Of a stretch of DNA of 7,084 nucleotides, positions 1 to 430 are shown piece after piece. The notes beneath the pieces are model-generated. The model made no database searches, was not told where the DNA came from, and saw only the letters and a program-made list of their open reading frames with translations. Source of the DNA: a virus (Duplodnaviria; Heunggongvirae; Uroviricota; Caudoviricetes); IMG/VR virus record IMGVR_UViG_2675903425_000013, one strand, 5' to 3'. Every line of letters starts with the position of its first letter. Within the stretch, counting starts at the first letter, position 1. The position numbers and the translations under genes are program-made.

Positions 1-430
1 CTCACCCCGGATGATGTGCGTCCGATGCTTGAACAGATGGTGAAGGAGGCGGTAAGCCATATCCCTGTTCCGCGCGACGGTCGTGACTATGATCCGGAAG
101 TACTGCAGAAGGCGGTGAATGATGCGGTCGCAAATATTCCGCAGCCGGCAGACGGTAAAAGTCTCACCCCGGATGATGTGCGTCCGATGCTTGAACAGAT
201 GGTGAAGGAGGCNNNNNNNNNNNNNNNNNNNNNNNNNNNNNNNNNNNNNNNNNNNNNNNNNNCTCACCCCGGATGATGTGCGTCCGATGCTTGAACAGAT
301 GGTGAAGGAGGCGGTAAGCCATATTCCTGTTCCGCGTGATGGTCGTGACTACGATCCGGATGTTCTGCAGAAGGCGGTTCTGGATGCGGTGAGTGCCCTG
401 CCGGCTCCGCAGGACGGGCGTGATGCCACG
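1..430 (+). repeat. In-frame tandem repeat, unit 162 nt (54 aa), at least 3 copies starting at 1, 163 and 263; each unit contains two ~27-aa sub-repeats
   Basis: The 50-mer ctcaccccggatgatgtgcgtccgatgcttgaacagatggtgaaggaggc occurs at 1-50, 163-212 and 263-312. Copies 1 and 3 are near-identical over ~100 nt with only synonymous or conservative changes, then copy 3 diverges. Within a unit, IPVPRDGRD-YDPEVLQKAVNDAV parallels IPQPADGKS-LTPDDVRPMLEQMVKEAV. Confidence 0.85.

Follow-up and report, generated by a model that had tools for sequence, protein, structure and literature searches.

The stretch of DNA analyzed here, referred to as the window, comprises 7,084 nucleotides of a virus of the Caudoviricetes (IMG/VR record IMGVR_UViG_2675903425_000013). 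By sequence match, it is Escherichia coli O157:H7 lambdoid prophage DNA of the Sp9 type. The window opens inside the gene of a tandem-repeat protein, here called X, with the true gene start approximately 480 nt upstream. Position 1 is the first base of a repeat unit and is probably a contig end. The sole ambiguous stretch of the window is a run of 50 N at positions 213-262. A 50-mer, CTCACCCCGG...GAAGGAGGC (in full, CTCACCCCGGATGATGTGCGTCCGATGCTTGAACAGATGGTGAAGGAGGC), is found with the same letters at 1-50, 163-212, and 263-312, and the N run is thus flanked on both sides by the same 50-nt repeat start, as the original prediction had stated. Chance is ruled out as an explanation, since an N run carries no sequence and three identical 50-mers are not random. 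The features of this part of the window are as follows.

1..162, + strand: unit 3 of four units of 162 nt (54 aa); 100% identity to Sakai Sp9 (L001 4501-4662) and strain 3384 (L083 3839-4000)
163..212, + strand: first 50 nt of unit 4, a duplicate of 263-312, and end of the left 212-nt contig; in finished genomes the 50-mer occurs once here
213..262, no strand: 50 N, read as a spacer from scaffolding to which nothing in the real genome corresponds; once 213-312 is deleted, the remaining 6,984 nt match both Sakai Sp9 and strain 3384 with 0 mismatches
263..424, + strand: unit 4, terminal, with a divergent 3' third; it differs from unit 3 (1-162) at 31 of 162 positions, mostly in that third and clustered at unit positions 117-161
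425..838, + strand: C-terminal all-beta domain of X with a CBM5/12-like module at its end; stop codon at 836-838
841..1167, + strand: gp6-like head-tail connector gene (PF05135, E 1.4e-07), annotated as head-tail connector protein in strain 3384 (L083)

Unit starts in the window are spaced by 162 nt and then by only 100 nt (163 to 263), and because the second spacing is not the 162-nt period, the reading frame shifts by one. Translation in frame 1 for positions 1-212 and in frame 2 for positions 263-838 gives the same repeat protein (LTPDDVRPMLEQMVKEAVSHIPVPRDGRDYDP...), and unit 3 is read as LTPDDVRPMLEQMVKEAVSHIPVPRDGRDYDPEVLQKAVNDAVANIPQPADGKS. A mechanical list of open reading frames (ORFs) contains two for this region, 16..276 and 278..838, both of which begin at internal GTG codons. 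The connector gene at 841..1167 places the repeat gene in the head module.

Tail genes are located further downstream. The major tail protein (2370-3086) contains a C-terminal Ig-like domain, with the Pfam families Ig_2, Ig_3, and I-set matching at aa 192-276 of the long ORF. After the gene of the tail assembly chaperone (PF06222; 3092-3466) comes a gene with an annotation of its own, "assembly protein T" (3490-3771), and the junction between the two is the usual place of a G/GT -1 frameshift. The tape measure gene consists of 3,081 nt (3824-6904) compared with 3,243 nt in Stx2_EH1846 (L002 6885-10127). This difference of exactly 162 nt (54 aa) is located near codon 500 of a gene with no internal DNA repeat, and its agreement with the length of the repeat unit is probably a coincidence. 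A tape measure of different length would imply a different tail length.

The gap compared with finished genomes

Window positions 1-212 correspond to positions 4501-4712 of the Sakai Sp9 locus (L001) and positions 263-1200 to 4663-5600, each at 100% identity, and in the finished genome the two pieces overlap by 50 nt. The merge of positions 1-162 with 263-7084 produces a sequence of 6,984 nt that matches Sakai Sp9 (NC_002695.2, 1787010-1793993; L089) with 0 mismatches and is an exact substring of strain 3384 (L083). The match to strain 3384 was considered as a possible second prophage copy and rejected, as this is one and the same Sp9-type prophage, with 100% identity across 14.8 kb. Merging the overlap also brings back one continuous reading frame, which is part of an ORF of 859 aa that is uninterrupted in Sakai Sp9 (L001). 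Three earlier proposals are correct: the gap is an assembly artifact that lies among tandem units of 162 nt, the reading frame is broken only artificially, and the two ORFs belong to one continuous coding sequence. The artifact consists of the 100 nt at 213-312, that is, the 50 N and one copy of the 50-mer, and as 100 mod 3 is 1, it breaks the frame. The broken frame at 213-262 is non-biological.

The Sakai Sp9 gene, ECs_1795, encodes a protein of 859 aa that carries the annotation "phage portal protein". The window agrees fully with Sakai Sp9 in units 3 and 4, in the C-terminal domain, and in every downstream gene, and departs from it only by the artifact (a 50-nt duplication and 50 N). Compared with ECs_1795, the window is without the 5' part of the gene, which holds the portal, the N-terminal helix, and units 1 and 2. 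In every one of the eight loci that contain both exact flanks, finished or draft, the left piece begins exactly 162 nt before the right piece. The merged junction, taken as 1,100 nt, is found at an identity of at least 99% in 403 complete-genome records, compared with 156 for the version that contains the N run. Pattern scans of viral and metagenome contigs for the junction with its N run gave no match, although an N in a pattern may not match a stored N.

We read the window as a scaffold, assembled from short reads, of an Sp9-type prophage of E. coli O157:H7 in which overlapping contigs are separated by a 50-N spacer and the gap is empty of units, with a probability of approximately 0.8. A 212-nt contig, made up of unit 3 and the first 50 nt of unit 4, would have been set before a 6,822-nt contig starting with the same 50 nt, and the two would have been spaced by a fixed 50 N instead of being merged. 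The window sequence is already present in finished, annotated genomes, and the gap is an ordinary artifact. It adds 100 unreal nt and interrupts a gene that finished genomes show to be intact, and automatic annotation would report a pseudogene or a pair of fragments here.

The gap may instead be real, with at least one further 162-nt unit between the pieces (112 + 162n nt) and an array longer than that of Sakai Sp9. Variation of the unit number from 1 to 7 among 64 intact relatives, with four units in Sp9 and five in the near-identical phi330, speaks for this reading, as does the choice of the scaffolder, which set a gap and did not merge. In addition, a 212-nt contig with identical first and last 50 nt is also expected from a collapsed loop of identical units, and the original prediction had likewise placed collapsed copies inside the gap. 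However, the pieces overlap in all eight loci with both exact flanks, and none of the eight (0/8) has units between the flanks, which speaks against a loss of copies at this place. Moreover, phi330 has its extra unit, a copy of unit 2, upstream of the window start and not between units 3 and 4, and two finished genomes match the merged window perfectly over all 6,984 nt. A longer array hidden in the gap is unlikely.

Two further readings would take the letters of the window at face value. It is very improbable that 16..276 and 278..838 represent two genes, or that the gene is truly a pseudogene in the source strain, even though the ORF is disrupted in 6 of 80 IMG/VR loci and the region is annotated as a pseudogene in several records. 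Those pseudogene labels concern an upstream site, described below as the 5G/6G site, and not positions 213-262; both flanks are 100% identical to the uninterrupted ORF in Sakai Sp9 and strain 3384, and the sole disruption in the window is the N run with the duplicated 50-mer. An N run that masks 50 real bases in place, so that 212 and 263 are truly 50 nt apart, is scarcely credible at all. Masking can produce N runs, and 50 is also the length of the flanking repeat, but a unit spacing of 100 nt fits neither the 162-nt period nor any of 90 related loci, and it would break the frame of a gene that is intact in finished genomes. Overlapping contigs with nothing between them is the preferred reading, and it is followed below.

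Repeat units and breaks in assemblies

The window contains two repeat units, the third and the fourth, and not three as first counted; units 1 and 2 are located upstream of position 1. Sakai Sp9 and strain 3384 each have four units, of which unit 1 is divergent, units 2 and 3 show five differences, and unit 4 is divergent in its 3' third. For the finished locus, Tandem Repeats Finder gives a period of 162, 3.3 copies, and 95% matches. On the window itself the program reported no repeat, since the periodicity is lost through the N run and the second copy of the 50-mer. A weak 75-nt period is also reported by Tandem Repeats Finder. Each 54-aa unit consists of two related halves of approximately 27 aa, in which a helix is followed by an IPxPxDG(K/R)(D/S) loop (window 1-424; L083 3608-4013). 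The X proteins of Klebsiella have odd numbers of halves.

The predicted variation of copy number among relatives was checked by counting units in the 64 intact IMG/VR loci, and it was found. Four units are the most common state (36 loci), followed by three (12 loci), five (9 loci), two (4 loci), seven (2 loci), and one (1 locus). The length of X is 245 + 54(n-1) aa for n units. In phi330, the additional unit-2-like copy is not in the place of the gap, and unit 3 still abuts unit 4. The earlier statement that copy number is unresolved holds for this assembly, but the place concerned is upstream of position 1 and not the gap. Near-identical units of 162 nt would be gained or lost by unequal recombination or slippage. 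Tandem repeats of domains in phage structural proteins are exemplified by the BACON repeats of crAss-like phages, which are likewise in-frame repeats of whole units whose number varies between related phages; X differs from them in fold and host (PMC6949934).

The position of the break can be related to the sequence of the array. In the finished array the first 50 nt are identical in units 2, 3, and 4, and since unit 2 first departs from units 3 and 4 at position 51, the 50-mer is the longest block from the unit start that is common to the three units. It is a natural branch point for an assembler. In de Bruijn assembly, a 212-nt contig (162 + 50) that shares 50 nt with its neighbor is plausible as the output of a graph with k=51. 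The window resembles the contig ends and spurious gaps of short-read (de Bruijn graph) assemblies at short tandem repeats: its two contigs begin at one repeat position, the left contig closes with the 50 nt that open the right contig, and the shared block stops at position 51, where one unit first differs. All three unit junctions share 12 further bases upstream of the 50-mer, and consequently the left edge of the block at unit position 1 is not accounted for by the array alone. The units of Sp10 were considered as the reason for a block starting at unit position 1 and rejected, as they differ within the 50-mer. A collapsed repeat in an assembly usually represents lost copies, whereas here the gap holds nothing and the sequence is 100 nt too long.

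The array is a habitual breakpoint of short-read assemblies. A contig ends inside the array in 14 of 80 IMG/VR loci, and the best protein matches are "partial" clusters of up to 2,394 members from contigs of 0.5-5 kb. Of 5,426 complete E. coli genomes, 1,246 carry the segment, at 7,648 places in all, with a median of 4 and a maximum of 23 in one genome.

Protein X and the portal gene

The window region represents the 3' end of ECs_1795 in Sp9. A portal domain is found only within the 859-aa ORF (PF04860 at aa 54-382 and TIGR01537 at aa 45-388), and the stand-alone homologs of the window's protein (245-330 aa) have no portal match. The part of the gene held by the window is not an HK97-type portal (PF04860/TIGR01537), and X is a separate gene that directly follows the portal gene. 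The genes are arranged as TerL, protease-capsid fusion, portal, X, and gp6-like connector. Stand-alone X proteins begin with M(N/T)ERELS (M(N/T)ERELSIIRALGEEF) and measure 245 aa with one unit, 294 aa in Klebsiella, or 330 aa with three units. Stx2_EH1846, Sakai Sp10, and Klebsiella prophages have separate genes for the portal (452-454 aa) and X, and the start of X overlaps the portal stop codon (ATGA). The separate Sakai Sp10 genes, ECs_1974 and ECs_1975, have 5 G, and the four-unit X protein is 407 aa.

Sp9 has one G more than the separate form (TTCAGGGGGGAT vs TTCAGGGGGAT) at approximately 20 nt before the portal stop, and the extra G (6 G instead of 5) brings X in frame with the portal to form the 859-aa ORF. 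The G run is located at L001 4004-4009 in Sakai Sp9, approximately 500 nt upstream of window position 1, and is also found in L002 and in L088 (near 48811). There are 6 G in Sp9-type loci and 5 G in Sp10, EH1846, and others; when the exact context was counted in IMG/VR, 41 contigs had 6 G and 57 had 5 G. X is fused to the portal C-terminus in approximately 40% of loci. The 5-G run is kept among E. coli variants, and Klebsiella has no G run at the corresponding place and carries CGAGGATTG instead. A programmed -1 ribosomal frameshift joining portal and X was considered and rejected, as no slippery site is conserved in Klebsiella (CGAGGATTG) and the 5-G run, when read in the portal frame, forms no standard X XXY YYZ heptamer. 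A further argument for a frameshift, based on a "hungry" ATA codon, is weakened by the tRNA-Ile (anticodon CAT) of Sp10 itself. This tRNA gene is located in Sakai Sp10 together with a tRNA-Arg gene (anticodon TCT) at L088 35705-35957, and both serve codons that are rare in E. coli.

The fusion of portal and X explains the "portal protein" label of PHROG 1289 and 2271. The 5-G arrangement is called "frameshifted" by PGAP, and it is annotated as "phage portal protein, frameshifted" or "portal protein (pseudogene)" at L084 1998-4576 (NZ_CP062160.1), in Stx2a_WGPS8, and in Stx2a_WGPS4. These labels look like false calls in which the fused form was taken as the reference. X alone is misnamed as "phage portal protein" in E. 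coli and as "gp6-like head-tail connector protein" in Klebsiella. For a partial homolog (P0001), PF28083.1 is given in a precomputed Pfam column.

Asadulghani et al. scored portal and head functions as defective in Sp9 and as intact in Sp10, which is transferable (PMC2669165, Table 1), and the defective score of Sp9 may be tied to the 6G fusion. The plaque-forming siphophage phi330 (vB_EcoS_phi330, PV189401.1, L090) has five units and a 6-G run in its record. This record also splits the portal, X, gp10-like, and major tail genes by apparent single-base errors. The 6 G of phi330, if real, would make the portal-X fusion compatible with viability, a matter that a record with so many split genes cannot settle.

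Structure and putative role of X

X is built from a long N-terminal helix, 1-7 copies of the 54-aa helix-loop unit, and a C-terminal beta domain. The structure models are of monomers, and in them each unit is modeled, at low confidence, as two halves with a helix of approximately 17 residues and a proline-rich loop of approximately 12 residues. The AlphaFold2 monomer of the whole protein has a pLDDT of 56, too poor for a fold search, with the repeat region below 55. The C-terminal fold matches solved CBM5/12 domains (PF02839), which are chitin- or cellulose-binding. Scores for PF02839 are 19.1-22.9 bits in the E. coli proteins against a gathering cut-off of 26.2 bits, which is exceeded by a Klebsiella protein (P0096, 27.1 bits) and a metagenome protein (P0080, 26.3 bits). 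The E. coli X proteins thus differ from CBM5/12 modules in scoring below the Pfam cut-off, and X has no catalytic domain attached. In BFVD, the C-terminal fold of X recurs at the ends of collagen-repeat and tail-fiber proteins. A PDB sequence search with X returned only designed helical repeat proteins (E ≥ 0.006), an NCBIfam search gave no match for X, and a literature search found no study of X and no virion proteomic or binding data on it.

The resemblance of folds and the position of the gene suggest a function for X. It would be a virion-associated fiber, the length of its shaft would be set by the number of units, and its tip would bind a glycan. Fibrous accessory virion proteins with modular shafts include T4 fibritin, the phi29 head fibers, and collagen-like phage fibers. 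X likewise has a long N-terminal helix, a shaft of repeats in variable number, and a small globular C-terminal domain. Its shaft, however, known here from sequence and models, is made of helix-loop repeats of 27/54 aa and is neither a heptad coiled coil nor collagen. Surface exposure of X is an assumption that is favored by the fiber-like build and the CBM5/12-like tip. In known portals, the C-terminus faces the capsid interior, and this direction of the portal end argues against surface exposure for a fused X.

A more speculative proposal, and a long shot, is that the 54-aa unit serves as the length ruler of a glycan-binding fiber, in which 1-7 units would tune the reach of the tip, and that the 5G/6G site is a mutational switch that would tether the fiber covalently to the portal (the 859-aa fusion) or release it as a free protein. 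If true, prophage populations would contain two virion architectures. Thousands of public entries named "partial portal protein" are cut short at the repeat array, and for these prophages the number of units cannot be read reliably from short-read assemblies. X is mislabeled as a portal and may deserve a correct name.
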